Source: Antedon mediterranea
Taxonomy: Eukaryota; Animalia; Echinodermata
DNA length: 64,000 bases
Reading direction: 5' to 3'
Assembly: GCF_964355755.1 (NCBI RefSeq)
Contig: NC_092670.1
Coordinates: 20,818,795 to 20,882,794 of the forward strand
The number at the start of each line of letters is the position of its first letter. The stretch's first letter is position 1. The translations under genes and the position numbers were made by a program. The notes beneath the pieces were generated by a model. The model saw nothing but the letters and a program-made list of their open reading frames with translations, was not told the origin of the DNA and ran no database searches. Positions 3,287 through 33,911 of the stretch are shown here, one piece after another.

Positions 3287-5181
3287 ATGTTATATTTTGA
3301 ATCACACGCGAGTTGGTTATTTTTATTTTTTCTTGTTAACAGTTTCGTTGCTACAGGTAAGACAACATTTATTTATAAACTATTTTAAAACAGTTTTTCT
3401 CCTTTTTTTTTTATAGTAGGCCTATAAGTTCTCTCAGTGAATTTCCTTTCCACCTTCACTATTAGGCACCGCGGCCTATGTAAAATATATCCTCCGCGAC
3501 TGTGCTTTCACACGTATTTTAAGTAAGTGAAGTTATTGGATTTCCACACTTTTTATAATTATATATTATAATATTTATTATAATTCATTCCAATAATTAT
3601 TTGACTTTACTATTATTCTTTAAAAACGTTGCAAAAAATCATATTTTATAAAATATAAAAAGTTATATTAGGACTCCAATGGAAACTAATTCTTTTTTGT
3701 AGAACTAATTATAATGAAGACTATAATTAATGAACAAACAGGCCTACATTAATTGTTACAGTTATCAACAATAGGCGGCTAAGCCTCAGATTGATCGGTA
3801 TATCTTCATATTTACTAAACTTGGCAATAATACATAACAGGGAGTGTCCAATCATGTTGCGTAATAAACGTTTGTTATAGCTTACAAACAACAGATCTGA
3901 AATATTTTATAGTATACCTACAGTATATCATCACAAAATCAATACAAACATAAATTGAGAAAGTAGTAATTCAAAACCGTTAATGATCAAAAAATACAAT
4001 CTAGGGGATCTTTTGTATGCATGTAAAAAGACAGTATGTAGGCTAAAACCTTCATTAGGTTTATTTTAATAGGCCTATTTTATTGGATTCGTCACGACAG
4101 ATAAGCTATTGCAGATCCGCCTAAGGAAGTCAAGTCACTGGTTCATGCTCGTTCTAAACATACACATACATTTCAGAGGACCCATTCGGGACTCACCAAA
4201 CTGTCCTCTGCGTAGAGCTGTTCTACTAGAAGGATTATATTGTATACAAATGGAATTATTTATCATTATTTATTTCTTTCAGCTTTACTAGAAACAGACG
4301 AACATTCAGGAAAAGGTAGGCCTATAATGTCTCAATTAATTATAACCAAACACAAAATCAATGGTAGCCTTCATTACTTAGTAATTTTAGTTATTTATAA
4401 TTAATAATAATAATTTTGATGAACTTAATTAAATATTTAATGTAAATAATCAGACGTCTCATGCATTCTGCCGGAAGTAGACAGGCTATAGTAACTAAAA
4501 GTTGCGAGTAACAACATCTGGTTTACCGATTAAGTGTGTTTACAGAATTATTACAAAATCACAAATTACTTAATATTCCACAAAATGTCAATATGAACTA
4601 ACATTTAGTTCATTAATTAGTTTTTTAATGTTGTTTCAATTCATTTTTATTTCGGATTTCATGAACATTTTAACGAAGATAAGGCCTAAACACATACATA
4701 ATATTTTCACATTTATAAATTCTAAAAACAGCGGTGGCAGTATTTGGAACTTCAGGATCTGGAGAGAATGTTTATTTTCACACCGAGGATGAACACAAGC
4801 AAGACAAAGATGTACACGTGATGATGACGGCTGCACCAGTTGTGGCGGGAAGTGGACCTTCCGGTTCAGTAGTAAAGGACACGACATCATATGTTAGAAT
4901 AAATTTACACAACATTGGAACTGTAGTTTCAAACGAAGACACAAGACACACATCTAACACTCATACTGAAGAGAGTACGTCAGGAGGTTGGTGGAAAGAG
5001 GAGACAACAAACAACTATACTCATTATTCGGTAGAAACTGTGACACCAGGAACAACGGAACACAGCTTTAACATCCATGAAGAAAGTGGAGTAGATACAC
5101 TGAGAAACAATTCCGAAAGAGTGGAGTCGGAGATGCCAATTTTAGCAATACCTACAGAACCAACTGTTGACACTGGACCAG
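3287..5181 (+). CDS. Exons 1-3: signal peptide and Thr/Ser/Glu-rich N-terminal stalk
   Basis: MLYFESHASWLFLFFLVNSFVAT|ALLETDEHSGK|AVAVFGTSGSGENV...PTEPTVDTGP; phase-1 introns at each junction. Confidence 0.7.
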
Positions 5182-8100
5182 GTAAAAGACGACTATTGTG
5201 GACTGCAATCAAATTGCAGACGACATCTCAAAGAACGGATGGCAAACAAGAAAGGGATACATTGTTATACAAATTTCGGTCATAGCATTAGTACTTCATG
5301 GTCTTCTCTCAAAAATAAGAATTATAATTATATTATTTAGTACACTTTTCAGGAGAGCGTTTGTCATAAATTAATCCATTTAAACTGATCATTTAAAATA
5401 AATCTTCACGCTGTATATTATTGTAGTTAGAAAAAATTATTTGCATTTTCGTAAACATTTTTGCAAATATTTCAATTAAGTTACTGTTCTATACATTTTA
5501 AGTACATTATTTTAAATGTCGGGTTTTCAGGTACAAGTAATTAGATGAATTCATCTTGCTAATTTTCAAGCTTTTGCTTTTATTTAGGTTACATAGTTCT
5601 CATAAGTGACTATCAGAATGGGGTTATTGAGCATGCGTACTTGGAAGATGAGCACGATACCAATGTGTCTTTTTCTGTGCTACCAATAGGCATTAGGCCT
5701 ACATTCGGTGTATCAGGAATCGCATTTGATCCCGTAGATAGCGTTGTTTACTGGTCTGATCGGAGTAAAAAGGTAATCGAAAGGGCGTATCTGGATGGTA
5801 CACACCGTCACGTGATAGTGAGAAATGTTGGTAAGTCTCTTTTTTTTCTTCTCATTTTATACATTGATTTTTTCATTTCCCTCTTCCCTCTTCTCATTCT
5901 CAAATATGATTTATCTTTATTTATAAAAAAAATATTGTTGATGTTGGTGTAACAAATGCTGTTTTTCAAGCTCGTCAACTTTGTGTTTCCATTTATCTCG
6001 TAATGTATCTTACGAAACTTTATGAGTGACTTCTCAAATTAATTATTAAATCGAAAAAAAACTTCAATAGTATCATCATTTACGTTTTTGTTTATTCTAT
6101 GAAATTCTGCTGGTATTATAGTGTATGGCACAGGTTTGAATATTGCGTCATCGTTTATCAGAAATGAAATGTGTTTACTGTCACTAGACATGATTTATAT
6201 TATTTACAAATAGAAACTATATATATGAACTTGTTTGGTCCTACAGAAATACAAAGTTGTTGAGCATAAATGAAATATCGTGTAGACTTTTTAAACTGTA
6301 TTACTATTATTAGTAACAGGACAGAGTGGAATTGAAATGACTAAACAACATACGATTGATGTGGTGTTATACCTTAAACATAGTATAGTCCAAAAGACAT
6401 ATTATTCTCTACTAAACTGCTACTACTGTTATTTCAAATGCTTATAACATTAAACATGTCTTTATGTTATCATTTATATCGATATCTGCTTTACAATAAT
6501 AACATCCCTATTCATACGTTATGAGCTAAATTTCCAGTGGCAAAACGAGTGAATATACACAACTAAATACTCTGATACCTATGAAGAGGACGCATGGTCA
6601 CAGGAGTGTTTCTGTATATCTACAGTATTCACCGTAGTTAATATTATATCAACTAGAAATGTCCCCCTTTTAATGGCCTCTACTATCAACAATTCAAATT
6701 CCAGATGCCTCTTCACTTGCACTTGACTTGGTCAACAGGAGGTTGTTTTTTGATGTTAACAATAACAAAAATACAGAAATAGAACGATCCAATCTGGATG
6801 GAACTGGACGAGTTACCGTGGTTAAAAATCAAAATTTTGAAATTGACGATGTTGAAATTAATAAACGGTAAATGTGTTTTTTTTTTATTTAGGTAAAGAA
6901 CGTAACGAAATGATTTGTTAAATAATTGCTGTCTTCTAATTGTTGTCCAATCTTTTTTCTTTACTGTCCTACAGTTTAACATATTCTAAATACATAATTT
7001 ACAACTGTAAATTCTTTAGTATAGTGGAATTATAAGTTCATATATTAATGAAAACAATTATTTATGCCCTCAATAAGTATTTAGTAACCTCCGAAAAGCT
7101 GGAGCTAAGTCACACATGAGCCTTTAAACATAATTTAAATATAAAATTGACTTATAGGCCTATTTAAATAAGTTTCTCAAAAAGAACTGTTTTGTTTTCT
7201 TGTCTCGTAGCTTTGTCTATTTTAGTTCTATGGAGGCAAGAAAGATAGAGCGCGCTGTCAAGACGAGTGGAAAGCAAAGGAAAACTCTAGCTGAGGAAAT
7301 TTCCCCAAAAGGCCTGGCCATCTCATCAGACGGTATGTATCATTATCATAGGTCTACTATTTTTCTTAGGGTCCCAAGTACTCCTCCCCGATCAGTTCCT
7401 GAACAACCACATTCAACAACCACGGTCTATATATTGTTGTTTAAGGTAAAGGTATCTACTGGACTGACGGAACATCTAACCATGTGATGGAAAGTGACCT
7501 ATCAGGCGATAGCAAGACGATGGTTTTGGACTCTTCCTACTATCCTGGTCTGAACAACACTCAAGATGTTGCCGCCATTGGAGAGTACCTGTTCGTAATC
7601 ACAGGTGACAGTGACCGTCTTATTCGGATAAATCGAAACAATCTTCAAATACAAGATATTGGAGAAGCTGTTTTCAATGATCCACGCAAAATAAAGATCG
7701 GTAAGTATACAAACAATATAACAAGACTAGTCTAGGTTCTAATATTGGTAAAAATGTTGGCATATATGGTACACTTAAGCTGGAAAAATCAAATTACAGT
7801 AATAAAGAAATCAAGAAAGAAAAAAGAAAGTTGTCTGAGAAAGTTAAATCAACACCATGAGCAATACTAGACTTCCAGAGACATTATTTATATAATAAAC
7901 GATCTGGATTCAACTGGGATGCCTGGATCAGACGTTAACTGCCAATCAATCAATCAATCAATCAACAATTGGGTTTTAATTTGTTTTCTTTTAATTTTTT
8001 GCAGTTTCATTGATGGGAGCATTTCTAGCAATGCCAACAAAGACAGGTAACGTTATCGTATTTAATTTAAATTAATTATTTAGACGATATATCGTTGTTT

Positions 8101-11100
8101 AAATGAAATGTAAATACAATTTCTAGTACCGATAGGAAGAGGGTTTACATGTAAAAGTATACATCCAATCATTACATTAACACAGTTTCTATTGTCAAGT
8201 GGTTAGTAAACTTGGATATTACCATCATTAACTTTTACAATTTGTTTTACAACAAACAGATTCTCTGTTGCAACGTTTTATGGCAACTAATGAAAAAGCA
8301 ACAGCAGAATTTGCACCACAGTGCAAGGCGTTAGGTCTTGATGAACGAGAGCCACTCGTGTACAATGATGAAGCTGGTGAGTATTAAGCTCTGTCTACAC
8401 TATCAAACTAGTTTGCCAAAAGAGGTATGATGTGACAAATATGGTAGTGATATGACATCATCATGTCCATACATGGCCGGCACATCAACATATTTTTGTC
8501 TCAAAAAGTTTCAGACTTTACTACTTTAGGTATCAATCATTGAGAAGTAACCAAACAATTGGCAATTAATCCACGTTGTGAAATCGGGACACAAACATTA
8601 CAGTACTGTGGTTATTATTTTGAAAATTAATTTTTGTTCTTGTATTGGTTTTTGCTTTAGTTGGTACACTGTCAAAATCACGTGGTTCACATACTGACGT
8701 AAATATTCATTCAAGCTCATCGATTTTGTATTCCATATCACCCTACTCATCTCAAGGTAATTGTACAATATCATTTCAACATTTGTAATGGAACGCTCAA
8801 TACGATAAAACTTATTGGCGTGCCAAATATCTCAAGAAAAAACCAAATGTAGCTGTCTATTTTTCATGTCAAAGATTACCAATAGTAAATTATAGACCTA
8901 TCTAAAATGTTCAAAACCTGTGTGTAATAACACGTTATTCTTGTTCTTTTTTTCAAGGAGAGACATGTAGTGTATCGCTATTATGGAACAACTCGTATGA
9001 CAATACTTTAATACAAAGGTTTGTACTGTTGTTAAAGATCAAACATGGATTATGTTTTAAAAAAAAGATAACAAAAAATAACTCACCCCAAACTTCATTG
9101 AATAAGTAACTTGAACGAATGGTTTGTTTGTGCAATTCCCCCTAAAAAAAATCCTAAAACAGTTGCAGGCATGTCACAATCTTTATAAAAAGAAATCAAT
9201 ATATATTATATAGAACTGTCACAATGTGGAAATCGGTTAGATTATATTCGTAACCTAACATAAGGTATAGTCGATAGCATATGTTAAACATAATAAATAG
9301 GCTTACCTGTTTTCCATTTTGGTTTATTTCGGTGGGCCGAAACACATTGAAACTGTATGATGTTCATCATGGATAAAAATGTGTGTAGCTTGAGTTGAGT
9401 TACAACTTTAGAGACTTCTTGTGCAATGAAAGGACCATACCATTCTCATAATAAATTCAATATAGGCTACCTAATGAAGGCCCCGTATCTTTTTTCTACC
9501 CTGATACAAACTATCTTATAAATTAACTAGTATGGTTCTATCATTTGTTTTCTTCTTAGAGTTAACAAAGAAGAAGAAATGGTCTACTTTCTTGCAAGCA
9601 GACTTGTATCCATTGTAACCTATAATGTAAATGAAGATGCAGTCGCTAATGGAAACACCTTTATACATTTTCCTTCGGATGAGGTAATGTCTTTCTACAA
9701 AGTTTGTTCAAAACATAACCTTAAACATTAGGCCTACACAGAAGAAGATTGATAGGCAGTGGGAGATTTGTCTCCTCGCCATGTATTGAATGAACATTGT
9801 AATTGATGTTCTTTATCTTAATAAACCTTTATTTTTAGATACGCTGGAAGAGAAATGGTTACCGTACCAGAGGAACAAGCAAGCCTGTGTGCACATACAT
9901 TGATAGAACTTCACTGTAAGAATTAAACTATATCAATTTTCTTTCTTCAATAAAGTGAACACTTTTTAAAGCTACTTTTTAAAAAAACGTAATGCATACT
10001 TGTTCGTACTCAGCAACTTGTTGCTGATGCAAAATATTAAAAAAAAGCTTGACGTACTTTATTTATAAAGATACAATAATTGATTTGGTCAACAGTTCCT
10101 TTTCTCCGGATGGATGCAAGACCTTCGCAAGTGATGCCAGGAAAAATGGCGTATCGTGCTCTTGCCACGAAGGGACTTCATTCGCACTCCTAATGGATAT
10201 TTCGTCACTGGTACGTACAATGAAAATTGCAAATACTGCTGCAGTTCAGTCTGACTGTGCTCACTATGCAAATATTGTAATATAAATGGGTTGGCCTCCT
10301 CACAAGTTTTTATAAAGACGTACTGTACTACATTAAATTACACACTCTCTAAGCATAATCCAAAAAAGATGCATGGACTACAGCATGTATTACCAGACGT
10401 TACTGAAACTGATTTGAAATAATGCTCATCTTCTTAAAATCTTCTCTATTACAGATTTACTATCCAGAAGCACTGTTGATAGTTACTTGCTTAGCCACAG
10501 TCTTGTCAATTTTAAGTCTACTGCTGATCATCTTCGGAACTGCAATAATGAAGTAATTATGCTTACAAAAGAATATCATGATCTTCATTTTTATAGTTGA
10601 TTGGACAGGAGAAAGTAGTAAAACCATAGCAATTGGAACTTAATCTTAGTGTTTAATATTAGTAAAATTTGACTTCAGGCTAAATATATAGGTGTGCCAT
10701 AATCAAATAATTCCCCTATAAAGACCTATTTACATAACTAGTTCATTGTTTAGTTTTATTTATGTAATACTATAATTGTCTTACAATTTACAGGAGAATG
10801 AAACATCTTCCAGAAAAGAGCCTCATTCGAAATCTGTCAATTGCTTTGCTACTGGCGAATGTTGCACTATTGGCAGATACGGGTGCTGATTTAAACACAT
10901 ATTTTGTAAGTGATCTTTCGTTACAGTTCGTATGACTGAAGAGGTAATACGAAATAGATTGGTAAATCTTGTACTCTTTTATTACAGGAGCTTACAAACA
11001 CGATGGCGTTATCGATTCACTTCTCACTAACATCCGTTTTCGTCTGGTTGTTCTTAATGATTTTCGACCTCTTCATCAAAGAGAAATTCGCATCCTGCCG

Positions 11101-20100: not shown

Positions 20101-23100
20101 ACAACTAGGGACAGTTACGAAACAACTGTTACAACAACTGATTATGTCATTACTGAAGATGATAGAAGAGAACCCAAAGACATAAGACGAACAAGGTCAC
20201 CAGAAAAGCAACGACGTTCAACAAAACCAGTAGACAGCAACTTTACTGGAAAAAACAAAAACACAATAAATGAACAATATTCTGATGGCGGAACGAAGCG
20301 CGATTCCAAAACCGAGTTTGGCAGTATTGACCATCCATTTAAATCCCAATATTTTCCTAAAAGAAATGATCGCAGAGACAGTCTTACTAGATTGGGATAC
20401 ACTAAAAGGTTCTCAGATACAACTCAACCATTTACCAGTGACATTGATAGCATTTCTGAAATAGAAGGGCTGCAACTGGAACCACAATTTGTGAAGAAAG
20501 ATGTCGTTCCACTACAAAGAACACTCGACAAGATACTTTTAGAACCAGAAAATATTCTTCAAGAGAATGAGTTAACACAAAGGAATGTTTTACAAGAACT
20601 TGACAAGGAAGTTTTAGAAATTATTTCTGAACGGGGGACGACGACAAAGACAGGTATTATTGCCATACAAGGAACAGACATTGTAGATAAACTAAGAGAA
20701 ATAAAACTAAATGAGCGAAGCTCACAACAAAAAAATCCTAGTAAGTTTGACAGCAAAAAACTTAAGTTCATGATTTTAGATGTTGGTGATAAATTAACAA
20801 CGCTTGAAAGACATTTTGACGAAGCAAGTGGTTTGAAAGCTATTCCACTTGACAGACCATTTGAGGCTTATATAGTGAATGTTGATGGCAGCCTTGTAGT
20901 CAGTCAGCCATTTGTATTCAGTTATGACAGAGATACAGCAACATATCGTAGACTGTCAATAAAACAACCAGTAAAGTATTATGAAGAAGGAGAGAAAATG
21001 AAAGAGACTGGATACACATATCGTAAAGAACAATTAGATGAGTTTTTAGTTCAAGTAGGAAAAGATAAAATAAGAAAGTGTCCTATTAAAATTGTAGAAA
21101 ATGATGACCCTGCTGCAAAATATATGTACGATATTGATCAAATAAAACTAATCATTCCGCATCCAGGAGATGATAGGTATGATATCAAATACATGAAACG
21201 ATATCAAGAAGAACCATGGTATATTGATCCCTATCCCATAAATGAAGATTTTATAGAGGCTATTGTGGTAAGACGGGATGGGACTCCAGAAACAGTCCAC
21301 TTACTGAAATACGAAAGTAAGAATACTTATTCAATAGTGATGTCAACTTCCGATCAAAATGAACTTGAGAGTGCAATAATAGCCAGCGAAAGTAATACCA
21401 AAATGCCTTCTCAAACAATTGAAATACCTTCAAGCCAACAACTTGAATCACCGATAGATAATGATAGCAGCACAGACACTGATATTTCATACGTAATTAA
21501 AACTATTGAGAAAATCGAAGAATCTGAACGAGAGTTGAAAGACGAACAAATAGTTGATGATGAGTCAACTCAAAGACGACGACAAGATATTATAGAAACA
21601 ACTACTACCACTACTACTGATGAAAGAATACGAGAACCTGTTGTACAAAGGTATGGTGATAGGAAATATGTTGTTGAAAGACGTGAAGAGTCACCGCAAA
21701 GACCAAGACAAGATATCATGGAAACAACTACTACCACTACTGCTGATGAAAGAACACGAGAACCTGTTGTACAAAGGTATGGTGATAGGAAATATGTAGT
21801 TGAAAGACGTGAAGAGTCACCTCAAAGACCAAGACAACAAGAAATCATAGAAACAACTACTACAACAACTACTACTGATGAAATCCCACAAAAACCTGCT
21901 GTTAAAAGACCAAGTAGTGAAAAGATAAGAACCTATGTAGTAGAGAGGCGTGACGAATCCCCTCAAAGACCAAGACAACAAGATATCATAGAAACAACTA
22001 CAACCACTACTACTGATCAAAGAACACGAGAACCTGTTGTACAAAGGTATGGTGATAGGAAATCTGTAGTTGAAAGACGTGAAGAGTCACCTCAAAGAAG
22101 ACCAAGACAAGATATTATAGAAACTACAACCACCACTACTGATGAAAGAACACGAGAACCTGCTGTAAAAAGACCAAGTAGTGAAAAGATAAGAACCTAT
22201 GTAGTAGAGAGGCGTGAAGAATCCCCTCAAAGACCAAGACAACAAGATATCACAGAAACAACTACAACCACTACTACTGATCAAAGAACACGAGAACCTG
22301 TTGTACAAAGGTATGGTGATAGGAAATCTGTAGTTCAAAGACGTGAAGAGTCACCTCAAAGAAGACCAAGACAAGATATTATAGAAACAACTACAACCAC
22401 CACTACTGATGAAAGAACACGAGAACCTGATGTAAAAAGGTATGGTGATAGGAAATATGTTGTTGAGAGACGTGAAGAGTCACCACAAAGACCAAGACAA
22501 CAAGAAATCATAGAAACAACTACTACCACTACTACTGATCAAAGAACACCAGAACCTGCTGTAAAAAGACCAAGTAGTGAAAAGATAAGAACCTATGTAG
22601 TAGAGAGGCGTGAAGAATCCCCTCAAAGACCAAGACAACAAGATATCATAGAAACAACTACAACCACTACTACTGATGAAAGAACACGAGAACCTTCTGT
22701 ACAGAGGTATGGTGATAGGAAATCTGTAGTTGAAAGACGTGAAGAGTCACCTCAAAGACCAAGACAAGATATCATAGAAACAACTACTACAACCAATACT
22801 ACTGATGAAAGAACACGAGAACCTGCTGTAAAAAGACCAAGTAGTGAAAAGATAAGAACCTATGTAGTAGAGAGGCGTGAAGAATCCCCTCAAAGACCAA
22901 GACAACAAGATATCATAGAAACAACTACAACCACTACTACTGATGAAAGAACACGAGAACCTGCTGTACAAAGGTATGGTGATAGGAAATCTGTAGTTGA
23001 ACGACGTGAAGAGTCACCTCAAAGACCAAGACAAGACATTATAGAAACAACTACTACAACCACTACTACTGATCAAAGAACACGAGAACCTGTTGTAAAG

Positions 23101-26100
23101 AGACCAAGTAGTGAAAAAATAAGAACATATGTAGTAGAGAGGCGTGAAGAATCACCTCAAAGACCAAGCCAACAAGAAATCATGGAAACAACTATTACCA
23201 CTACTACTGATCAAAGAACACGAGAACCTGTTGTACAAAGGTATGGTGATAGGAAATCTGTAGTTGAAAGACGTGAAGAGTCACCTCAAAAAAGACCAAG
23301 ACAAGATATTATTGAAACAACTACAACCACCACTACTGATGAAAGAACACGAGAACCTGCTGTACAAAGGTATGGTAATAGGAAACATGTTGTTGAGAGA
23401 CGTGAAGAGTCACCGCAAAGACCAAGACAACAAGATATCATAGAAACAACTACTACCACTACTACTGATGACATAACACGAGAACCTGTTGTACAAAGGT
23501 ATGGTGATAGGAAATATGTTGTCGAAAGACGTGAAGAGTCACCGCAAAGACCAAGACAAGATATCATAGAAACAACTACTACCACCACTACTGATGAAAG
23601 AACACGAGAACCTGTTGTACAAAGGTATGGTGATAGGAAATATGTCGTTGAGAGACGTGAAGAGTCACCGCAAAGACCAAGACAACCAGAAATCATAGAA
23701 ACAACTACTACCACTACTACTGATCAAAGAACACAAGAACCTGCTGTAAAAAGACCAAGTAGTGAAAAGATAAGAACCTATGTAGTAGAGAGGCGTGAAG
23801 AATCCCCTCAAAGACCAAGACAACAAGATATCATAGAAACAACTACAACCACTACTACTGATGAAAGAACACGAGAACCTGCTGTACAAAGGTATGGTGA
23901 TAGGAAATCTGTAGTTGAACGACGTGAAGAGTCACCTCAAAGACCAAGACAAGACATTATAGAAACAACTACTACAACCACTACTACTGATCAAAGAACA
24001 CGAGAACCTGTTGTAAAGAGACCAAGTAGTGAAAAAATAAGAACATATGTAGTAGAGAGGCGTGAAGAATCACCTCAAAGACCAAGCCAACAAGAAATCA
24101 TGGAAACAACTATTACCACTACTACTGATCAAAGAACACGAGAACCTGTTGTACAAAGGTATGGTGATAAGAAATCTGTAGTTGAAAGACGTGAAAAGTC
24201 ACCTCAAAAAAGACCAAGACAAGATATTATTGAAACAACTACAACCACCACTACTGATGAAAGAACACGAGAACCTGCTGTACAAAGGTATGGTAATAGG
24301 AAACATGTTGTTGAGAGACGTGAAGAGTCACCGCAAAGACCAAGACAACAAGAAATCATAGAAACAACTACTACCACTACTACTGATCAAAGAACACAAG
24401 AACCTGTTGTACAAAGGTATGGTGATAGGAAATATGTAGTTGAAAGACGTGAAGAGTCACCACAAAGACCAAGACAAGATAATATAGAAACAACTACTAC
24501 CACTACTACTGATGAAAGAACACGAGAACCTGCTCTACAAAGGTATGGTGATAGGAAATATGTTGTTGAAAGACGTGAAAAGTCACCACAAAGACCAAGA
24601 CAACAAGAAATCATAGAAACAACTACTACGACTACTACTGATCAAAGAACACAAGAACCTGCTGTAAAAAGACCAAGTAGTAAAAAGATAAGAACCTATG
24701 TAGTAGAGAGGCGTGAAGAATCCCCTCAAAGACCAACACAACAAGATATCATAGGAACAACTACAACCACTACTACTGATGAAAGAACACAAGAACCTGT
24801 TGTGCAAAGGTATGGTGATAGGAAATATGTTGTTGAAAGACGTGAAGAGTCACCTCAAAGACCAAGACAACAAGAAATCATAGAAACAACTACAACCACT
24901 ACTACTGATGAAATAACACAACAACCTGCTGTACAAAGGTATGGTGATAGGAAATATGTTGTTGAAAGACGTGAAGAGTCACCTCAAAGACCAAGACAAC
25001 AAGAAATCATAGAAACAACTACTACAACCACTACTGATGAAATAACACGAGAACCTGTTATACAAAGGTATGGTGATAGGAAATATATTGTTGAAAGACG
25101 TGAAGAGTCACCTCAAAGACCAAGACAACAAGAAATCATAGAAACAACTACAACCACTACTACTGATGAAATAACACAACAACCTGCTGTACAAAGGTAT
25201 GGTGATAGGAAATATGTTGTTGAAAGACGTGAAAAGTCACCGCAAAGACCAAGACAACAAGAAATCATAGAAACAACTACTACAACGACTACTGATGAAA
25301 TAACACGAGAACCTGTTATACAAAGGTATGGTGATAGGAAATATGTTGTTGAACGACGTGAAGAGTCACCTCAAAGACCAAGACAACAAGAAATCATAGA
25401 AACAACTACAACCACTACTACTGATGAAATAACACAACAACCTGCTGTACAAAGGTATGGTGATAGGAAATATGTTGTTGAAAGACGTGAAAAGTCACCG
25501 CAAAGACCAAGACAACAAGAAATCATAGAAACAACTACTACAACGACTACTGATGAAATAACACGAGAACCTGTTATACAAAGGTATGGTGATAGGAAAT
25601 ATGTTGTTGAACGACGTGAAGAGTCACCGCAAAGACCAGGAAAGGAAATCATAGAAACAACTACAACCACTACTACTGATGAAATAACACAACAACCTGC
25701 TGTACAAAGGTATGGTGATAGGAAATATGTTGTTGAAAGACGTGAAAAGTCACCGCAAAGACCAAGACAACAAGAAATCATAGAAACAACTACTACAACC
25801 ACTACTGATGAAATAACACGAGAACCTGCTGTACAAAGGTATGGTGATAGGAAATATGTTGTTGAAAGACATGAAGAGTCACCTCAAAGACCAAGACAAG
25901 ATATCATAGAAACAACTACTACAACCACTACTACTGACGAAAGAACACAAGAACCTGCTGTAAAAAGACCAGGTAGTGAAAAGATAAGAACCTATGTAGT
26001 AGAGAGGCGTGAAGAATCCCCTCAAAGACCAAGACAACAAGATATCATAGAAACAACTACTACCACTACTACTGATGACATAACACGAGAACCTGTTGTA

Positions 26101-28722
26101 CAAAGGTATGGTGATAGGAAATATGTTGTCGAAAGACGTGAAGAGTCACCGCAAAGACCAAGACAAGATATCATAGAAACAACTACTACCACTACTACTG
26201 ATGAAATAACACAACAACCTGCTGTAAAAAGACCAGGTAGTGAAAAGATAAGAACCTATGTAGTAGAGAGGCGTGAAGAATCCCCTCAAAGACCAAGACA
26301 ACAAGATATCATAGAAACAACTACTACCACTACTACTGATGACATAACACGAGAACCTGTTGTACAAAGGTATGGTGATAGGAAATATGTTGTCGAAAGA
26401 CGTGAAGAGTCACCGCAAAGACCAAGACAACAAGAAATCATAGAAACAACTACAACCACTACTACTGATGAAAGAACACGACAACCTGTTGTACAAAGGT
26501 ATGGTGATAGTAAATATGTTGTTGAAAGACGTGAAGAGTCACCTCAAAGACCAAGACAACAAGAAATCATAGAAACAACTACTACAACTACTACTGATGA
26601 AAGTACACGAGAACCTGCTGTACAAAGGTATGGTGATAGGAAATATGTTGTTGAAAGACGTGAAGAGTCACCGCAAAGACCAAGACAACAAGAAATCATA
26701 GAAACAACTACAACCACTACTACTGATGAAAGAACACGAGAACCTGTTGTACAAAGGTATGGTGATAGGAAATCTGTTGTTGAAAGACGTGAAGAGTCAC
26801 CTCAAAGACCAAGACAACAAGATATCATAGAAACAACTACTACAACCACTACTACTGATGAAAGAACACGAGAACCTTCTGTACAGAGGTATGATAGGAA
26901 ATATGTAGTTGAAAAACGTGAAGAATCCCCTCAAAGACCAAGACAACAAGAAATCATAGAAAGTACTACAACCACTACTACTGATGAAAGAACACGAGAA
27001 CCTGTTGTACAAAGGTATGGTGATAGGAAATCTGTTGTTGAAAGACATGAAGAGTCATCGCAAAGACCAAGACAAGATATCATAGAAACAACTACTACAA
27101 CAACTACTACTGATGAAAGAACACGAGAACCTGCTGTAAAAAGGTACGGTGATAGGAAATCTGTTGTTGAAAGACATGAAGAGTCACCTCAAAGACCAAG
27201 ACAACAAGAAATCATAGAAACAACTACTACAACAACTACTACTAATGAAATAACACGCGAACCTGCTGCACAAATGTATGATTATGAGACTAGAAAATAT
27301 GTAATTGGAAGAAGAGAAGAGTCACCTCAAAGGCCAAGACAAGAAATCATAGAAACGACTACAACTACTACTACTACTGATGAAAGAACACGAGAACCAT
27401 ATGATAAAGAGACAATAAGTTATATAGCAGACAGACGTGAAGAATCACCTCGAAGACAAAGACGAGCAATCATAGAAACAACTACATCTACAGACAAAAT
27501 AACAAAAGAGCCAATTGTTCAAAAATCTGATGAGATAATAAGCTATGTTGTAGAAAATAGAGACGATGATGTGGCAAGAAGACATGGATACGTAGAGACA
27601 ACTACAACAATGAATAGTGGTACAATTGGTGACCTCACGATCGGTGATACTAGAACGTGGACTGATGAAAAACGTGTTGGATATCCAGAATATATTACTA
27701 CTAATACATCTGATGGAAGAATTACAGATGTTTCTCACCAGTACGGGTATGAAACAATTACAACTACAACAGACGAAGAACAAAAAGATCATCATTGCGA
27801 ACATTGTAGCAAGCCTATAGTAAAGGAGGAAGAAGGAGAAGTTGACAGTGAACTGTCTTATGTTATCAATACTATAGAGACAATTGAAGGGGCTGAAGGT
27901 GAGGTGACTGAAGGTTTATATATTACACAAACTAATGAATTTGATAACCAAACCAGTAGTACAACATATCAACAGAATACTGGGCAACAAGAAGTCACTA
28001 GAGACAGGTACAATGCAGGATGGTCGACCGATCAAGCTTCAACACAATATGAATACCCAACTGGCGGTGGTGAAAATATTGTCATTAACGAGGTAGGCCA
28101 GAAAAGTAGTCCATTTTTAACATATAAATCAGTAGGTTACAGGGACCAAGAAGGCACATCTGGCGTCCAAGATATTCAGAGTAGTAGTATAGCCCATGAT
28201 TTCACCAGCTATTCAGCCAGCAGTAACTATGGTTCGACAACATACGGCAATAGTGGGGGAGTTACTGACGGCAACAGTGCTGTGTCTGGAGAAACACAGG
28301 CTTACACAGACATCCAGACCGAAGTAATGGAAACTGATGGACAGACGTTCCGAGGAGTTTCAGGAGGATCCACTTCTGAGCGTGGTAGAAGTCGTTTCAG
28401 AACTCAATTATCAGGTGTTGTCTTAAGACCAAGAGCCAGTGCGAAATCTAGATATGATGTAGACGTGGAATCAGTTAAGATCACAGCTGAAGAAACGACA
28501 CAGATGCAAAGTACACCCATGGACTATGACGGGTCCAATACAGGCTGGTCGACCGATCAAGCTTCAACACAATATGAATACCCAACTGGCGGTGGTGAAC
28601 ATATTCAATCAGTAAGTTACAGAGACCAAGAAGGCACATCTGGTATCCAAGATATTCAGAGTGGTAGTATAGCCCATGAATTCACCAGCTATTCAGTCAG
28701 CAGTAACTATGACCCCAGATAA
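3287..28722 (+). CDS. Adhesion-GPCR-like receptor with YWTD beta-propeller, GAIN/GPS, 7TM and a giant repetitive C-terminal tail (~6,356 aa, 21 coding exons)
   Basis: Exons: 3287-3356, 4283-4315, 4732-5181, 5588-5830, 6705-6867, 7211-7332, 7446-7700, 8005-8046, 8260-8376, 8661-8756, 8958-9018, 9560-9683, 9839-9915, 10096-10210, 10455-10552, 10794-10905, 10988-11211, 11412-11478, 11798-11901, 12012-12174, 12388-28722. All introns are GT-AG with compatible phases. The first 20 exons total 2,736 nt (912 codons) with no stop. Confidence 0.85.
5588..7700 (+). CDS. Exons 4-7: six-bladed YWTD (LDL-receptor class B) beta-propeller
   Basis: Blade motifs: VLISD; GIAFDPVDSVVYWSDRSKKVIERAYLDG; LALDLVNRRLFFD..IERSNLDG; FVYFSS; PKGLAISSDGKGIYWTDG..VMESDLSG; DVAAIGEYLFVIT; closing strand PRKIKI. 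Confidence 0.85.
8005..10210 (+). CDS. Exons 8-14: short GAIN-like region ending in a GPS motif
   Basis: ...LASRLVSIVT...KPVCTYIDRTSLSFSPDGCKTFASDARKNGVSCSCHEGTSFALLM: four GPS cysteines and a Stachel-like TSFALLM directly before TM1. Confidence 0.8.
8387..8515 (+). mobile_element. Harbinger-like MITE (agctctgtctacactatcaaact family), 3'-degenerate copy
   Basis: Same left TIR and internal atatggtagtgatatgacatcatcatgtccat core as eight other copies in the window. Confidence 0.7.
10455..12174 (+). CDS. Exons 15-20: class B2 (adhesion-type) seven-transmembrane domain
   Basis: TM1 LLIVTCLATVLSILSLLLIIF; TM2 LIRNLSIALLLANV; TM3 IHFSLTSVFVWLFLM; TM4 FGWGMPILI; TM5 IWSMVGPIIFFIAISLLML; TM6 LFTFLLIYISATWSIG; TM7 QYVFVILNGTIGFVLLL. 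Confidence 0.88.
12388..28722 (+). CDS. Giant terminal exon (16,335 nt coding, 5,444 aa): predicted intracellular tail
   Basis: Acceptor tttgtag at 12381-12387 is phase 0 and in frame with ORF 12409-28722. It matches the phase-0 donor AGG|gtgag at 12174 after TM7. No stop over 16 kb. Confidence 0.85.
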   Translation, partial: TKQVQARVEPSIHGQSLPGAYYDEDILMPHSSDYKQSHYNEGYIVTESPIQKPMEKPSRKKYRKETSDTKVFFTEGSAQQEHYQQRTSDVGKRDGKAREKVFREDITLQILEEGKPNDEVIDIEEEYITGIYHKDRISDVPMEVEPSSKRRSLKRLTGSLKDKSKALIHSSTGLGKKITDYQKQKFHGKNKELTKDIQETTITTRIEDDSIIEMVDYPQQLVETERRQTMPDKHETTIIQEKQEIQQTRSPGVRRHLQDTSDNNRKEPETRRTRSPEQQRRPTQPIERHPIRSKDQHNRDVYKTSVTRTEEDYIINEDDRVERRPTRSPERQRRPTERRTGRPDEQDKTKDVYETTVTTTDYVITEDDRREPEDIRRTRSPENQRRPIQPTERRPGRPDEQDTIRDVYETTVTTTDYIITEDGRREPEDIRRTRSPERQRRPTERRPAEPDEQDIIRDVYETTVTRTEDDYIITKGDRKEPEAIRQTRSPEKQRRSIQPPERRPGRPDEQGTTRDVYETTVTTTDYVITEDDRREPEDIRRTRSPEKQRRQTQPAERRPGKPDEQDTIRDVYETTVKSKTEEDYIITKGDRKEPEAIRRTRSPEKERRPIQPTERRPGRPDEQDTIRDVYETTITTTDYVITEDDRREPEAIRRTRSPKKQRHPIQPTERRSGRPDEQDTIRDVYETTVTTTDYVITEDDRREPEDIRRTRSPEKQRRQTQPAERRPGKPDEQDTIRDVYETTVKSKTEEDYIITKGDRKEPEAIRRARSPEKQRRPIQPTERRPGRPDEQDTIRDVYETTIATTDYVITEDDRREPEAIRRTRSPEKQRHPIQPTERRSGRPDEQDTIRDVYETTVTTTDYFITEDDRREPEDVRRTRSPEKQRRQIQPAERRPGKPDEQYTTEDVYETTVTTDYVITEDDRREHGDIRRTGSPERQRRPTERRPGRPDIQDTTKDVYETTVTTRTEDDYIITKGDGKEPEAIRRTRSPEKQRRPIQPTEKRPGRPDEQDTIRDVYETTVTTKTEEDYITTKGDRKEHEDIRRTRSPEKQRRSIQPTDRRSVRPDEQDTIRDVYETTVTTTDYVITEDDRREPEYIRRTRSPDKQSSPIQPTERRPGRPDEQDTNRNVYETTVTTITEEDYIITEDDRREPKDIRRTRSPEKQTRPIQPTERRPGRPDEQDTIRDVYETTVTTKTEEDYIITKGDRKEPEAIRRTMSPEKQRRPIQPTERRSGRPDEQDTTRDVYGSTFTTTDYVITEDDRREPGDIRRTRLPQKQRRPIQPTERRPGRPDEQETIRDVYETTVTATTTDYVITEDDRREPKDTRRTRSPEKQRRRIQQTERRPGRPDEQDIIRDVYEKTVTTKTEEDYITTKGDRKEPGDIRRTRSPEKQRRPIQPTDRRSVRPDEQDTIRDVYETTITTTDYVITEDDRREPEYIRRTRSPDKQSSPIQPTERRPGRPDEQDTNRNVYETTVTTITEEDYIITEDDRREPKDIRRTRSPEKQTRPIQPTERRPGRPDEQDTIRDVYETTVTTKTEEDYIITKGDRKEPEAIRRTMSPEKQRRPIQPTERRSGRPDEQDTTRDVYGSTFTTTDYVITEDDRREPGDIRRTRLPQKQRRPIQPTERRPGRPDEQETIRDVYETTVTATTTDYVITEDDRREPKDTRRTRSPEKQRRRIQQTERRPGRPDEQDIIRDVYEKTVTTKTEEDYITTKGDRKEPGDIRRTRSPEKQRRPIQPTDRRSVRPDEQDTIRDVYETTVTTTDYVITEDDRREPKYIRRTRSPEKQRRPIQPTERRPGRPDEQDTIRDVYEKTVKSKTEEDYIITKGDRKEPEAIRRTRSPEKQRRPIQPTERRPGRPDEQDTIRDVYETTITTTDYVITEDDRREPEAIRRTRSPEKQRHPIQPTERRSGRPDEQDTIRDVYETTVTTTDYVITEDDRRKPEDIRRTRLPQKQRRPIQQTERRPGRPDEQDTIRDVYETTVTTDYVITEDDRREPEYIRRTWSPETKRRPTQPTERRPGRPDEQDTIRESYEATVTTDYVITEDDRREPEDTRRTRSHEKQIRPTQQTERRRGRPDEQDTIRDAYETTDYVITEDDRQEPEDTRRKRSPEKQRRPIQPTERRLGRPDEQETIRDVFETTVTATTTDYFITDDDRREPEDTRRTRSPEKQRRPTQQTERRPGRPDEQDIIRDVYEKTVTTDYVITEDDRREPEDTRRTRSPEKQRRPSQQTERRPGRTDEQDIIRDVDEKTVTNDYVITEDDRREPEDTRRTRSPKRKRRPIQPTDRRQGRQDEQDTIRDVYETTVTTTDYIITEDGRREPEDIRRTRSPERQIRPTERRPAVPDEQDIIRDVYETIVTRTEEDYIITKGDRKEPEAIRQPRSPEKQRRPIQPTERRPGIPDEQDTIRDVYETTVTTTDYVITEDGRKEPKDIRRTRSPEKQWGPLQPTDRRPGRPDEQDITKDVYETTVTTTDYVITEDDKREPEYIRRTRSPEKQRRPHQPTERRPGRPDEQDITRDVYETVTTTDFVITEDDRREPEDRRRKKSPEKQRRPIQPIQRRPFRPEEQETTRDSYETTVTTTDYVITEDDRREPKDIRRTRSPEKQRRSTKPVDSNFTGKNKNTINEQYSDGGTKRDSKTEFGSIDHPFKSQYFPKRNDRRDSLTRLGYTKRFSDTTQPFTSDIDSISEIEGLQLEPQFVKKDVVPLQRTLDKILLEPENILQENELTQRNVLQELDKEVLEIISERGTTTKTGIIAIQGTDIVDKLREIKLNERSSQQKNPSKFDSKKLKFMILDVGDKLTTLERHFDEASGLKAIPLDRPFEAYIVNVDGSLVVSQPFVFSYDRDTATYRRLSIKQPVKYYEEGEKMKETGYTYRKEQLDEFLVQVGKDKIRKCPIKIVENDDPAAKYMYDIDQIKLIIPHPGDDRYDIKYMKRYQEEPWYIDPYPINEDFIEAIVVRRDGTPETVHLLKYESKNTYSIVMSTSDQNELESAIIASESNTKMPSQTIEIPSSQQLESPIDNDSSTDTDISYVIKTIEKIEESERELKDEQIVDDESTQRRRQDIIETTTTTTTDERIREPVVQRYGDRKYVVERREESPQRPRQDIMETTTTTTADERTREPVVQRYGDRKYVVERREESPQRPRQQEIIETTTTTTTTDEIPQKPAVKRPSSEKIRTYVVERRDESPQRPRQQDIIETTTTTTTDQRTREPVVQRYGDRKSVVERREESPQRRPRQDIIETTTTTTDERTREPAVKRPSSEKIRTYVVERREESPQRPRQQDITETTTTTTTDQRTREPVVQRYGDRKSVVQRREESPQRRPRQDIIETTTTTTTDERTREPDVKRYGDRKYVVERREESPQRPRQQEIIETTTTTTTDQRTPEPAVKRPSSEKIRTYVVERREESPQRPRQQDIIETTTTTTTDERTREPSVQRYGDRKSVVERREESPQRPRQDIIETTTTTNTTDERTREPAVKRPSSEKIRTYVVERREESPQRPRQQDIIETTTTTTTDERTREPAVQRYGDRKSVVERREESPQRPRQDIIETTTTTTTTDQRTREPVVKRPSSEKIRTYVVERREESPQRPSQQEIMETTITTTTDQRTREPVVQRYGDRKSVVERREESPQKRPRQDIIETTTTTTTDERTREPAVQRYGNRKHVVERREESPQRPRQQDIIETTTTTTTDDITREPVVQRYGDRKYVVERREESPQRPRQDIIETTTTTTTDERTREPVVQRYGDRKYVVERREESPQRPRQPEIIETTTTTTTDQRTQEPAVKRPSSEKIRTYVVERREESPQRPRQQDIIETTTTTTTDERTREPAVQRYGDRKSVVERREESPQRPRQDIIETTTTTTTTDQRTREPVVKRPSSEKIRTYVVERREESPQRPSQQEIMETTITTTTDQRTREPVVQRYGDKKSVVERREKSPQKRPRQDIIETTTTTTTDERTREPAVQRYGNRKHVVERREESPQRPRQQEIIETTTTTTTDQRTQEPVVQRYGDRKYVVERREESPQRPRQDNIETTTTTTTDERTREPALQRYGDRKYVVERREKSPQRPRQQEIIETTTTTTTDQRTQEPAVKRPSSKKIRTYVVERREESPQRPTQQDIIGTTTTTTTDERTQEPVVQRYGDRKYVVERREESPQRPRQQEIIETTTTTTTDEITQQPAVQRYGDRKYVVERREESPQRPRQQEIIETTTTTTTDEITREPVIQRYGDRKYIVERREESPQRPRQQEIIETTTTTTTDEITQQPAVQRYGDRKYVVERREKSPQRPRQQEIIETTTTTTTDEITREPVIQRYGDRKYVVERREESPQRPRQQEIIETTTTTTTDEITQQPAVQRYGDRKYVVERREKSPQRPRQQEIIETTTTTTTDEITREPVIQRYGDRKYVVERREESPQRPGKEIIETTTTTTTDEITQQPAVQRYGDRKYVVERREKSPQRPRQQEIIETTTTTTTDEITREPAVQRYGDRKYVVERHEESPQRPRQDIIETTTTTTTTDERTQEPAVKRPGSEKIRTYVVERREESPQRPRQQDIIETTTTTTTDDITREPVVQRYGDRKYVVERREESPQRPRQDIIETTTTTTTDEITQQPAVKRPGSEKIRTYVVERREESPQRPRQQDIIETTTTTTTDDITREPVVQRYGDRKYVVERREESPQRPRQQEIIETTTTTTTDERTRQPVVQRYGDSKYVVERREESPQRPRQQEIIETTTTTTTDESTREPAVQRYGDRKYVVERREESPQRPRQQEIIETTTTTTTDERTREPVVQRYGDRKSVVERREESPQRPRQQDIIETTTTTTTTDERTREPSVQRYDRKYVVEKREESPQRPRQQEIIESTTTTTTDERTREPVVQRYGDRKSVVERHEESSQRPRQDIIETTTTTTTTDERTREPAVKRYGDRKSVVERHEESPQRPRQQEIIETTTTTTTTNEITREPAAQMYDYETRKYVIGRREESPQRPRQEIIETTTTTTTTDERTREPYDKETISYIADRREESPRRQRRAIIETTTSTDKITKEPIVQKSDEIISYVVENRDDDVARRHGYVETTTTMNSGTIGDLTIGDTRTWTDEKRVGYPEYITTNTSDGRITDVSHQYGYETITTTTDEEQKDHHCEHCSKPIVKEEEGEVDSELSYVINTIETIEGAEGEVTEGLYITQTNEFDNQTSSTTYQQNTGQQEVTRDRYNAGWSTDQASTQYEYPTGGGENIVINEVGQKSSPFLTYKSVGYRDQEGTSGVQDIQSSSIAHDFTSYSASSNYGSTTYGNSGGVTDGNSAVSGETQAYTDIQTEVMETDGQTFRGVSGGSTSERGRSRFRTQLSGVVLRPRASAKSRYDVDVESVKITAEETTQMQSTPMDYDGSNTGWSTDQASTQYEYPTGGGEHIQSVSYRDQEGTSGIQDIQSGSIAHEFTSYSVSSNYDPR
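13200..20220 (+). repeat. Coding tandem array 1, ~165-bp (52-58 aa) unit, ~42 copies
   Basis: Consensus RRTRSPEKQRRPIQPTERRPGRPDEQDTIRDVYETTVTTTDYVITEDDRREPEDI; copy number estimated from span divided by unit length. Confidence 0.95.
21580..27490 (+). repeat. Coding tandem array 2, ~126-138-bp (42-46 aa) unit, ~45 copies, two unit variants
   Basis: Consensus QEIIETTTTTTTDERTREPVVQRYGDRKYVVERREESPQRPRQ; the variant has KRPSSEKIRTY in place of QRYGDRKY. Confidence 0.95.
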
Positions 28723-31450: not shown

Positions 31451-32454
31451 CAGTAAAACCCTCTCATTCAGCAGGACACCTCTATTAAAGGGACACTTTG
31501 CCAAGAACCTAACAAGGGTAACACTATGGCCAACCCTATTAAAGGGACACTTTGCCAAGAACCTAACAAGGGTAACACTATGGCCAACCTCTATTAAAGG
31601 GACACTTTGCCAAGAACCTCACAAGGGTAACACTATGGCCAACCCTATTAAAGGGACACTTTGCCAAGAACCTAACAAGGGTAACACTATGGCCAACCTC
31701 TATTAAAGGGACACTTTGCCAAGAACCTAACAAGGGTAACACTATGGCCAACCCTATTAAAGGGACACTTTGCCAAGAACCTAACAAGGGCAACACTATG
31801 GCCAACCTCTATTAAAGGGACACTTTGCCAAGAACCTCACAAGGGTAACACTATGGCCAACCTCTATTAAAGGGACACTTTGCCAAGAACCTAACAAGGG
31901 TAACACTATGGCCAACCTCTATTCTAGGGACACTTTGTCAAGAACCTAACAAGGGCAACACTATGGCCAACCTCTATTAAAGGGACACTTTGCCAAGAAC
32001 CTAACAAGGGTAACACTATGGCCAACCTCTATTAAACGGACACTTTGCCAAGAACCTAACAAGGGCAACACTATGGCCAACCTCTATTAAAGGGACACTT
32101 TGCCAAGAACCTAACAAGGGCAACACTATGGCCAACCTCTATTAAACGGACACTTTGCCAAGAACCTAACAAGGGTAACACTATGGCCAACCTCTATTAA
32201 AGGGACACTTTGCCAAGAACCTAACAAGGGTAACACTATGGCCAACCCTATTAAAGGGACACTTTGCCAAGAACCTAACAAGGGTAACACTATGGCCAAC
32301 CTCTATTCTAGGGACACTTTGCCAAGAACCTAACAAGAGTAATACTATGGCCAACCCTATTAAAGGGACACTTTGCCAAGAACCTAACAAGGGTAACACT
32401 ATGGCCAACCTCTATTAAAGGGACACTTTGTTTGGTCCCAACAGTGTTCTACTG
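31451..32454. mobile_element. TA-flanked CAGT...ACTG MITE (Tc1/mariner-like ends) expanded by an internal minisatellite
   Basis: ta|cagtaaaac ... gttctactg|ta. Related non-expanded fragments (cctctattaa/gggacact/ggggttctactgta) occur near 47405-47470, 48780-49010, 52083-52137 and 57170-57205. Confidence 0.65.
31478..32430 (+). repeat. Minisatellite, 53/55-bp unit, ~17 near-identical copies
   Basis: Unit acctctattaaagggacactttgccaagaacctaacaagggtaacactatggcca, head-to-tail with no spacers. Confidence 0.95.
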
Positions 32455-32604: not shown

Positions 32605-33911
32605 TCATACTTCTTTTGCTTGGTCAATTGCATGGTACCGCTTTTTCACGAAATCTGAAGCTTTCTTATCTCCATGACGATTACTCAAAATGGTAAACAT
32701 TGTCTGGTCTTCCGCTAGAAATAGATAATATAAATATTACATAATAGAATTAGTAGCTCACTGAAAAAAATACAGTTAATGTATTATAATACAGAGTCTA
32801 CAATTCCATTATTCATGAATTCATTCTTTATTTCAGATAAGTGATAGAGACATAACAAAAAAAATGTATTCTTAGAAGTCAAATATAAAATTATATCAAA
32901 GTAGTGCTGAACCTATGCATATACATTATAAGACTATTGTAAAGCTTTGTCTTCATTATCAAACTTTATGTGACAACAAAATGTGATGTCATATCACTAC
33001 CATATTTAAGCATATCACTACCATATTTGGGCACATCACACTTTTTTTGATAGTGTAGACAGGGCTTTAGTTTATATTATGTAGTATTGTATTTAACAAT
33101 GTTATAGCTGAATAAGTAAACAAATTCAATCAGTTAAGTTGCTTTGAAATGGTCTAACCTGTTAGAACTGGTTTCACAAGCTTAAGCGAATGCTGCTGAG
33201 ATGCCCCTTGTAGGTTTATTCCAGGAATTGTTTCCAACGATATCATCGCCTCTCCTTCTAAATCATTTGAAAACATCATATCATGATCCATCACGCTGAA
33301 CACTACACTAGCTCCTCTTTTTTTACACTGTTCTTCTCGGATATTACTGCAATAAAATATATAAAAGAAACAAATGAGTTCTTGCACTTTATTGCCCCAG
33401 CAGCCAACTTTGAGAAGAGTAGGCAACAGGACTTAGTTAAGAAAATTAAATTGAACTCTAACGTCCCTGAATAATAAATATTTCATATTATTGCTATTAT
33501 TGTTTCGAAAAATACAATGATAATATACAACACATAGTCATGTCATGTGTAATAATCAATAAAACTTACAATTCAAAACTTTGATTAAAAACTGGATTTA
33601 ATGTTTTCTTTATAACCTTTGTTCTCTGTGGATCTAAATTGAACATGTGACGGGGGCAAAGTTCAATCATCACAAAAGGGTCACTAACACCTGAAATAAA
33701 AAAAAATATTTAAAAAATGAATTTATGAAATATTTAATTTTGGAAAATTACCTCTAATAATAATAATTAATTTAATTAATATTTTCTTACCATTACAATC
33801 AAGTGCCCTGAGATTTTTCGCTTTGTTGACTTCAACAATCAGCTTACTGTCCATTGGGTTGTAGTAGCAGACGACATCTAGTTCACCATATGAATTGTCT
33901 GACCTACTCAT
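32605..33911 (-). CDS. BAIAP3: Last four exons of the BAIAP3-like gene: C2B domain and C-terminus
   Basis: LIVEVNKAKNLRALDCNGVSDPFVMIELCP..RTKVIKKTLNPVFNQSFEF..FSVMDHDMMFSNDLEGEA..LSNRHGDKKASDFVKKR..EV*. Confidence 0.9.

Follow-up and report, generated by a model that had tools for sequence, protein, structure and literature searches.

Does a single gene at this locus encode both a G-protein-coupled receptor of the adhesion type (aGPCR) and the giant repetitive reading frame downstream of it, and what would such a receptor do? The locus lies in a 64,000-nt window, the whole stretch of DNA analyzed here, from Antedon mediterranea, a crinoid of the family Antedonidae. A model of 21 exons was assembled on the forward strand at 3287–28722, with exon borders snapped to AG/GT. 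The joined frame is 19,071 nt long and encodes 6,356 aa; its only stop codon is the terminal one, at 28720–28722. All 20 introns, which lie between 3287 and 12388 and are 82–926 nt long, are GT–AG. Exons 1–20 encode a head of 912 aa, and exon 21 (16,335 nt) is an open frame of 5,444 codons. No stops occur in this frame, against about 353 expected from base composition, and the other five frames over exon 21 contain 138–698 stops. A preliminary description of this DNA had proposed that small exons splice in frame into a multi-domain head and that about 86% of the protein follows the last transmembrane helix (TM7). The model agreed with both points, as 5,450 residues (85.7% of the protein) lie after TM7. 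It is letter-for-letter identical to RefSeq XP_071964025.1 (6,356 aa), an A. mediterranea "uncharacterized protein", and has the same start codon. The RefSeq cluster contains two isoforms; the other, XP_071964026.1 (isoform X2, 6,206 aa), is without exon 3 (150 aa) and equals the model minus aa 35–184. When the mid-tail sequence was used as a query, 2,983 candidates yielded one protein, which was 100% identical, came from A. mediterranea, and carried PF00002.

Elsewhere in the window, exons of a convergent neighbor gene were observed at 33154–55278 on the reverse strand. They include two C2 pieces (33157–33432, E = 0.003; 54964–55278, E = 3e-5) with helical exons between them, and we take this neighbor to resemble BAIAP3/Munc13-4. 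One of its introns contains a LINE retrotransposon (39720–43917, forward strand) whose ORF1-like frame spans 244 aa; a second frame, of 848 aa, encodes endonuclease and reverse transcriptase (RVT_1, E = 1e-33) and is interrupted by a stop at 43582–43584, beyond which 110 more codons follow. Intronic minisatellites were found at 31478–32430, 37636–38354, 49006–49308, and 53797–54156, with periods of 55, 134, 47, and about 26 nt, respectively.

Five sequencing runs contain the region. They come from one organism, and none is recorded as RNA. Four were compared over 10980–13380; three of these (runs X2, X3, and X5) are one sample. In run X1, the TM7 exon was joined to the giant exon at 12174/12388 (GT–AG) in a contig of depth 86.9 with 29 letters on its short side. 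Three upstream GT–AG joins were present in the same run, at 11211/11412 (depth 86.9), 11478/11798 (67.9), and 11901/12012 (86.8). Each join was represented by one contig, and three of them had only 26–29 letters on the short side. Exon contigs in X1 had depths of 87–137, and intron contigs had depths of 4.5–6.2. Runs X2, X3, and X5 had flat depth and contained none of the four joins. The joins and the gap between exon and intron depth, set against the flat depth of the other three runs, indicated that X1 behaves as RNA, although its RNA status is a guess. In this run, splicing of the TM7 exon into the giant exon is as frequent as splicing among the upstream exons. This evidence comes from one study and consists of contigs, not reads; it supports the junctions of exons 17–21 and covers 993 of the 16,335 nt of exon 21, up to 13380. 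The same RNA may underlie both the RefSeq model and the X1 joins.

The preliminary description had placed a phase-0 GT–AG intron at 12175–12387 in front of the giant exon and had named a missing join across 12174/12388 as fatal to its proposal. Run X1 skipped this intron at a depth of 86.9, against 6.2 for the contig that retained it. The latter depth was similar to those of other introns (4.5–5.0), so a short-tail isoform made by retention of intron 20, ending in KRVSI, was unsupported. In intron 18, a very high-copy short interspersed repeat was observed at 11575–11675 (summed depth 1e4–1e5). The allele in the window carries a polymorphic insertion in this intron, as 11618–11674 was skipped in three of the four runs and the fourth had five other letters in that place.

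The join also bears on the idea that the head serves for delivery or timing and that the tail acts as a free structural or nuclear protein, either severed from the head or produced additionally from an internal start. We consider this quite unlikely. The depth at 12174/12388 equaled that of the upstream junctions, Anneissia japonica, a second crinoid, shares the join (see below), and no sign of a separate first exon for exon 21 was seen. Consistent with a released tail, in-frame ATGs are present at 12469, 12547, 12811, 13027, and 13075, and exon 21 opens with a contig of greater depth (137) than the upstream exon contigs (87–104), but the depths of contigs are no basis for ranking gene parts. 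Release of a C-terminal tail is known for polycystin-1, which also counts in favor of this idea.

The head was scanned with Pfam as residues 1–800 of RefSeq isoform X2, and single exons were scanned as well. Exon 1 (3287–3356) contains the start codon and a predicted signal peptide (aa 1–23), called from hydropathy by a hydrophobic stretch at aa 8–26. Exons 2–3 (4283–4315 and 4732–5181) encode a Ser/Thr/Glu-rich N-terminal stalk. The PDB matches of the head fell into two groups, the propellers of LRP2/4/6 and nidogen on the one side and the membrane domains of aGPCRs on the other. The propeller group corresponds to exons 4–7 (5588–5830, 6705–6867, 7211–7332, and 7446–7700), which encode a YWTD (LDL-receptor class B) β-propeller at aa 185–445 (Ldl_recept_b, PF00058, E = 2.4e-6). 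Its motifs are degenerate (YWSD, FFDV, YFSS, YWTD, and FVIT). The predicted structure was confident, with pLDDT of about 70–90 over isoform X2 residues 80–280, and it superposed on LRP6, LRP4, and nidogen propellers with rmsd mostly of 2–3 Å over about 220 columns at 17–25% identity. The protein thus shares the six-blade propeller fold with LRP4/5/6, LRP2, and nidogen. It differs from them in having a single propeller fused to seven transmembrane helices (7TM) rather than to a single-pass anchor, and Pfam found no EGF or LDLa modules around the propeller in the head. The YWTD–EGF pairs, LDLa repeats, and single helix that characterize the LDL-receptor family were therefore not found.

Exons 8–14 (8005–10210) encode a linker and a short, divergent GAIN-like region with a GPS motif at its end. 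The motif, CSCHEG/TSFALLM (aa 639–651, slash at the cleavage position), corresponds to CQCYHM/TSFAVLM in CELSR2. In the head, GPS (PF01825) scored E = 0.0044 and 17.9 bits, under the cut-off of 22.5, and exon 14 alone gave E = 0.0004. All four GPS cysteines (C610, C625, C639, and C641) align with those of CELSR2 and are kept, and the two Trp positions are Tyr and Phe. No Pfam match to the GAIN family was found in the head. Alignment to CELSR2 and ADGRD1/G6 begins at about aa 578–606, and the ADGRG6/D1 matches reach 15–30 aa before the GPS. The GAIN-like region was modeled with pLDDT below 50, from an alignment containing one GAIN homologue. Since the alignment is poor there, the GAIN and 7TM models are mostly below pLDDT 60, and the head model is usable for the propeller only.

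The Stachel sequence TSFALLM (aa 645–651) fits TxFxxLM exactly. The cleavage consensus HL/T is absent, with Glu643 at position −2 and Gly644 at −1. In the accessible text of PMC13197933, the GPS consensus is CxCxHL/T, and changing the His at −2 abolishes cleavage. Autoproteolysis is therefore not predicted for this protein; a His one position before Glu643 leaves slight doubt. According to the same text, uncleaved GAIN domains are known in ADGRB2/B3, so the failed consensus does not exclude membership in the aGPCRs.

Exons 15–20 (10455–12174) encode an adhesion-type 7TM domain at aa ~660–906. 7tm_2 (PF00002) matched at E = 1.9e-17 over profile positions 4–249 of 250. The best PDB relatives were ADGRD1 (E = 1e-16), ADGRL3, and ADGRG2, and BLAST placed CELSR2 nearest; aGPCR chains ranged from 1e-16 to 1e-4, against 5e-4 for the secretin-type PAC1R. 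The top Atlas rows were all aGPCRs (scores 0.78–0.81), which serves as a lead only, and exon 20 alone had no PDB match. Hydropathy analysis gave the signal peptide and six helices above 1.6, and TM4 was placed by its GWGMP motif. No hydrophobic segment was found in the tail, where the maximum was 1.08. GPCRs have an established topology, with the N-terminus outside and the C-terminus inside. With this orientation and seven helices, the tail is predicted to be cytoplasmic. Pfam and PDB thus bore out the propeller and the 7TM domain that had been read from the sequence at first; the GPS proved degenerate and below the cut-off, and the GAIN part had no Pfam match.

The 7TM domain keeps some activation residues and has lost others. 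By alignment to CELSR2, Thr729 and Ser802 stand in place of the TM3 and ECL2 cysteines, Met replaces the Glu that follows WLFL, and Ser replaces N5.50. N2.50, H3.41, W3.50, P4.50, and G7.50 are kept, and the toggle Trp875 (W6.53) is present in Antedon and is Leu in Anneissia. The vertebrate signatures LHxxxLxxFxW, GxGxP, and FxxxxxxQG were taken from the accessible part of PMC8584163. GxGxP is complete (GWGMP), LHxxxLxxFxW keeps three of its five fixed positions (IHFSLTSVFVW), and FxxxxxxQG is without its Q (FVILNGTIG); the Leu of the TM3 signature is changed. With some signature residues kept and others lost, the evidence on G-protein signaling is mixed. Signaling may be intact, as the Stachel, N2.50, H3.41, W3.50, GxGxP, G7.50, and, in Antedon, W6.53 are kept.

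A signal peptide, an adhesion-type ectodomain, a GPS motif with a Stachel, and a full 7tm_2 domain are shared with aGPCRs (class B2), and judged by its 7TM domain, GPS cysteines, Stachel, and ectodomain, the gene product is an aGPCR. The class C assignment of GPR158/GPR179 does not apply, as Pfam found 7tm_2 and not 7tm_3, and a propeller and not Cache. The YWTD propeller is absent from the ectodomain types of human and sponge aGPCRs given in the figure legend of PMC13197933 and in the accessible part of PMC4302439, respectively.

These features could also describe a conventional signaling aGPCR, in which ligand or force acting on the propeller moves the Stachel and switches on a G protein without cleavage, and the tail is an oversized regulatory element for phosphorylation, arrestin bias, or trafficking. 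The perfect Stachel, the four GPS cysteines, and W3.50, P4.50, G7.50, and W6.53 in Antedon agree with it, as do the uncleaved GAIN domains of ADGRB2/B3 and the LPHN2 tails of 34–366 aa that tune G-protein/arrestin bias (PMC12236479). However, the TM3–ECL2 cysteine pair is missing, three residues of the family signatures (the TM3 Leu, N5.50, and the TM7 Gln) differ, W6.53 is Leu in Anneissia, and some 86 near-identical repeat units are more than a regulatory code needs. We regard a conventional signaling receptor as rather unlikely.

The tail, encoded by the forward strand throughout, consists in order of a unique start, array A, a middle block, array B, and a unique end. The membrane-proximal unique part (12388–13389, 334 aa) is similar to Anneissia and was covered by X1 contigs. 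Array A (13390–20221) contains about 41 units of 51–58 aa with the core DYVITEDDRREPEDIRRTRSPEK; Tandem Repeats Finder (TRF) gave a period of 165 nt and 41.0 copies. Array B (21558–27398) contains about 45 units of 41–46 aa with the core RREESPQRPRQQDIIETTTTTTT, with a period of 129 nt and 44.7 copies. The two arrays were mutually unrelated by detection (best E = 0.14). Between them lies the non-repetitive middle block (20222–21557, 445 aa), which is also similar to Anneissia. The C-terminal unique region (27399–28722, 440 aa) contains the motif RFRTxxSGVVLRPR near 28411 and the stop codon. Two motifs, GWSTDQASTQYEYPTGGGE and RDQEGTSGxQDIQS, each occur twice (28018–28185 and 28543–28665) and flank the SGVVLRPR motif. 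A terminal PDZ-binding motif is absent from the Antedon tail, which ends in NYDPR.

The tail contains 16% Thr, 15% Arg, 12% Glu, 8.5% Asp, 7.5% Pro, and three Cys, with a net charge of −62. FoldIndex predicted disorder over 97% of it and over 93% of the Anneissia tail. Two scaling laws gave a contour length of about 2 µm and a coil radius of about 23–33 nm. There are 92 SP/TP sites in the Antedon tail (79 in Rxx[S/T]P) and 28 in the Anneissia tail, and most of the ~86 repeats have one proline-directed RxxSP/SPxR site. Where the preliminary description had spoken of a "giant disordered cytoplasmic scaffold", the disorder was supported, and the scaffold role is an inference.

The middle block has a conserved core of about 250 aa (20641–21372, or tail aa of about 2750–2995). 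It had no match in Pfam, PDB, or Atlas, and its model, built from an alignment of two sequences, had a pLDDT of 34. The core is a candidate folded domain of no known family. Two similar halves, marked by EAYIVNVDGS and EAIVVRRDGT, were seen by eye in 20641–21372; they are perhaps a tandem pair of small β-rich domains.

The middle block was run with HMMER against all 1.84 billion representatives and had four matches, including the Antedon protein itself. Two others, P0034 and P0035, were set aside as chance matches of bacterial type inflated by repeats. The informative match was XP_033118469.1 (P0033), a "titin-like" protein of 2,640 aa from A. japonica, a crinoid of the Comatulidae, whose middle block is 47% identical (E = 6e-51). 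Its model begins at about the end of TM5 and thus covers TM6 onward, not the propeller or GPS. TM6–TM7 (LQYVFAVLNGCIGFVLL against LQYVFVILNGTIGFVLL) run into a tail of 2,532 aa with the same order of parts as in Antedon and the same end motif, SGVVLRPR. The Antedon membrane-proximal tail is 30% identical to the start of the Anneissia tail (E = 4e-36 including TM6–7). The label "titin-like" was rejected, as neither XP_033118469.1 nor the three unique segments scanned in the Antedon tail had a Pfam match to Ig or fibronectin-III domains, which make up the titin array. On these sequence features, XP_033118469.1 is likely the orthologue of the Antedon protein from about TM5 onward. Residues 8–35 of XP_033118469.1, at the TM5/ICL3 position, are very Cys-rich (CRCLC...CERCCDTCQCGDICRCCC), unlike Antedon; this start is possibly a palmitoylation cluster or a mis-modeled first exon.

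Array A has seven units of 65 aa in Anneissia, against 41 × 55 aa in Antedon, and array B has about 30 units in Anneissia, most of them 45 aa long, against 45 × 43 aa. Profiles built from the Antedon units had 6 (A) and 30 (B) matches in Anneissia and none in 21 controls (20 shuffles and the reversed Anneissia sequence). The repeat cores, including the SP site, are kept in both families, whereas unit length and number differ. These results indicated that both the TM7–tail join and the repeat cores were already present before the two families diverged; judging by the sequences, unit length and number changed separately in each. Exact tail length is not conserved, as it differs twofold between the two species.

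A metagenome scan with the middle block gave 591 pattern matches, none of which was confirmed. The word-index search with the head gave at least 12 matches among 7,989 shorter candidates listed and 19 among 4,027 candidates of similar length; the matches listed comprised the protein itself, one CELSR2, and otherwise only LRP-type propellers. This search is insensitive and found no close head relative outside Antedon, from which absence in other echinoderms does not follow. Together, the word-index and metagenome searches, both insensitive, found no relative outside crinoids.

With a second genome at hand, an artefact, either a prediction that fused neighboring genes or a misassembly that inflated the arrays, becomes very improbable. 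Of the four runs compared, X1 alone contains the join, the same join exists in the independent Anneissia genome, the repeat units are diverged rather than identical, and the 64,000-nt window contains no N letters. Repeat arrays are assembly-prone, and the contig evidence reaches 13380, short of array A. We regard the artefact reading as largely refuted already, and the architecture is very probably real and translated. The "inverted" architecture first proposed, large inside rather than outside, was thus upheld by splicing at the key junction and by conservation of the TM6–TM7–tail join in Anneissia, and no outcome that the preliminary description had named as fatal was seen.

The two species also provided evidence on whether the repeats matter. 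Possibly the tail works only through its unique segments, namely the start, the middle block, and the end motif, and the arrays are bloat from tandem repeats that a disordered linker tolerates. Copy numbers differ between the species (41 vs. 7 for A, 45 vs. about 30 for B), and units are homogenized within species, with within-array identities of 79% for A (35 of ~41 units aligned) and 82% for B (42 of ~45), as would be expected from bloat. Among units, pN/pS was 0.66 for A (35 units) and 0.38 for B (42 units), by a crude pairwise estimate in which pairs are non-independent; the value for A is only moderately low, but both are below 1. Moreover, the repeat cores with their SP site are kept across two families, and the differences in unit length are all frame-keeping throughout 12.7 kb. 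Bloat therefore has only a small chance of being the full account.

We favor the reading that the main job of the receptor is to be a membrane anchor with a phosphorylation-tuned, multivalent scaffold or brush, at a probability of roughly 0.55. The protein would be an uncleaved seven-pass receptor. Its YWTD propeller likely binds a matrix or neighbor-cell protein, by comparison with the propellers of LRPs and nidogen, and the 7TM domain would fix the molecule at the site of propeller–ligand contact. Beneath the membrane where adhesion takes place, the ~86 near-identical units could then line up as docking sites or serve as a spacer switchable by charge, and phosphorylation at the proline-directed sites may tune this multivalent tail. 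Canonical G-protein signaling would probably be weakened or secondary, by analogy with GPR179.

GPR179, a class C orphan and the nearest analogue, has a highly flexible C-terminal region (736–2367), binds the matrix ligand pikachurin, and recruits RGS complexes without G-protein activation, according to the accessible text of PMC11437087. The likeness is a functional working analogy only: GPR179 is a class C receptor with a Cache ectodomain, whereas the Antedon protein is a class B2 propeller receptor, and the GPR179 tail (~1,630 aa) is 3.3 times shorter. The NF-M/NF-H tails of neurofilaments are long, disordered, and of mixed charge, with repeated phosphorylation sites, and form a tunable brush, as described in the accessible part of PMC11626179. 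The Antedon tail may be compared with them for its length, disorder, and repeated phosphorylation sites; no homology was detected. As NF-H brushes stay compact even when phosphorylated (same part of PMC11626179), brush swelling cannot be assumed.

AHNAK, giant ankyrins, and Futsch offer further comparisons for the tail, and AHNAK and the ankyrins have giant single repeat exons. All of these, neurofilament tails included, are grafted to filaments or are peripheral adaptors, in contrast to a seven-pass receptor. Among aGPCRs, LPHN2 variants have tails of 34–366 aa, and 333 aa is called large (PMC12236479), against 5,450 aa here. The accessible text of PMC13197933 states that aGPCR tails can be very large and that no annotated domains are known in them; the conserved block of ~250 aa may be such a domain.

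The preliminary description had called the architecture unrecognized. Indeed, no published description was found, but the gene model itself was already in RefSeq, unnamed and undescribed; the labels "uncharacterized" (Antedon) and "titin-like" (Anneissia) name no receptor. XP_071964025.1, XP_071964026.1, and XP_033118469.1 were not found in the literature searched. The accessible open literature gave no account of the gene, of a YWTD-bearing aGPCR, or of an aGPCR tail of several thousand residues; sea-urchin, acorn-worm, and amphioxus repertoires in subscription or supplementary material may list a YWTD aGPCR. Neither a YWTD aGPCR nor a giant aGPCR tail is mentioned in the accessible parts of PMC4302439, PMC2396169, PMC7042368, and PMC9897584. 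In Ciona, according to the accessible text, the LDL repeats carried by rhodopsin-type receptors are of class A and not of class B. The receptor architecture is thus apparently real, conserved, and undescribed.

A large extracellular part is what defines aGPCRs; in this receptor of 6,356 aa, 86% of the residues are predicted to lie inside the cell, with a tail about 15 times that of latrophilin and over three times that of GPR179. As it is common to two crinoid families, the design is no one-off, and it extends the design space of GPCRs toward receptor–cytoskeleton hybrids. The conserved middle block could be the first folded domain in the tail of an aGPCR. The gene also offers a natural test of what an aGPCR does once self-cleavage, whose loss is predicted, and several activation residues are gone. 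Work is under way to establish A. mediterranea as a model for development (PMC11336682), so expression is directly testable. A bolder reading, less likely than not, is that feather stars have turned an aGPCR into a non-cleaving, largely G-protein-independent anchor that ties an extracellular ligand to a micrometer-long, kinase-switchable polymer with a new folded domain in mid-tail. If so, the receptor itself would be a cortical skeleton under its own control, with the longest GPCR tail found.
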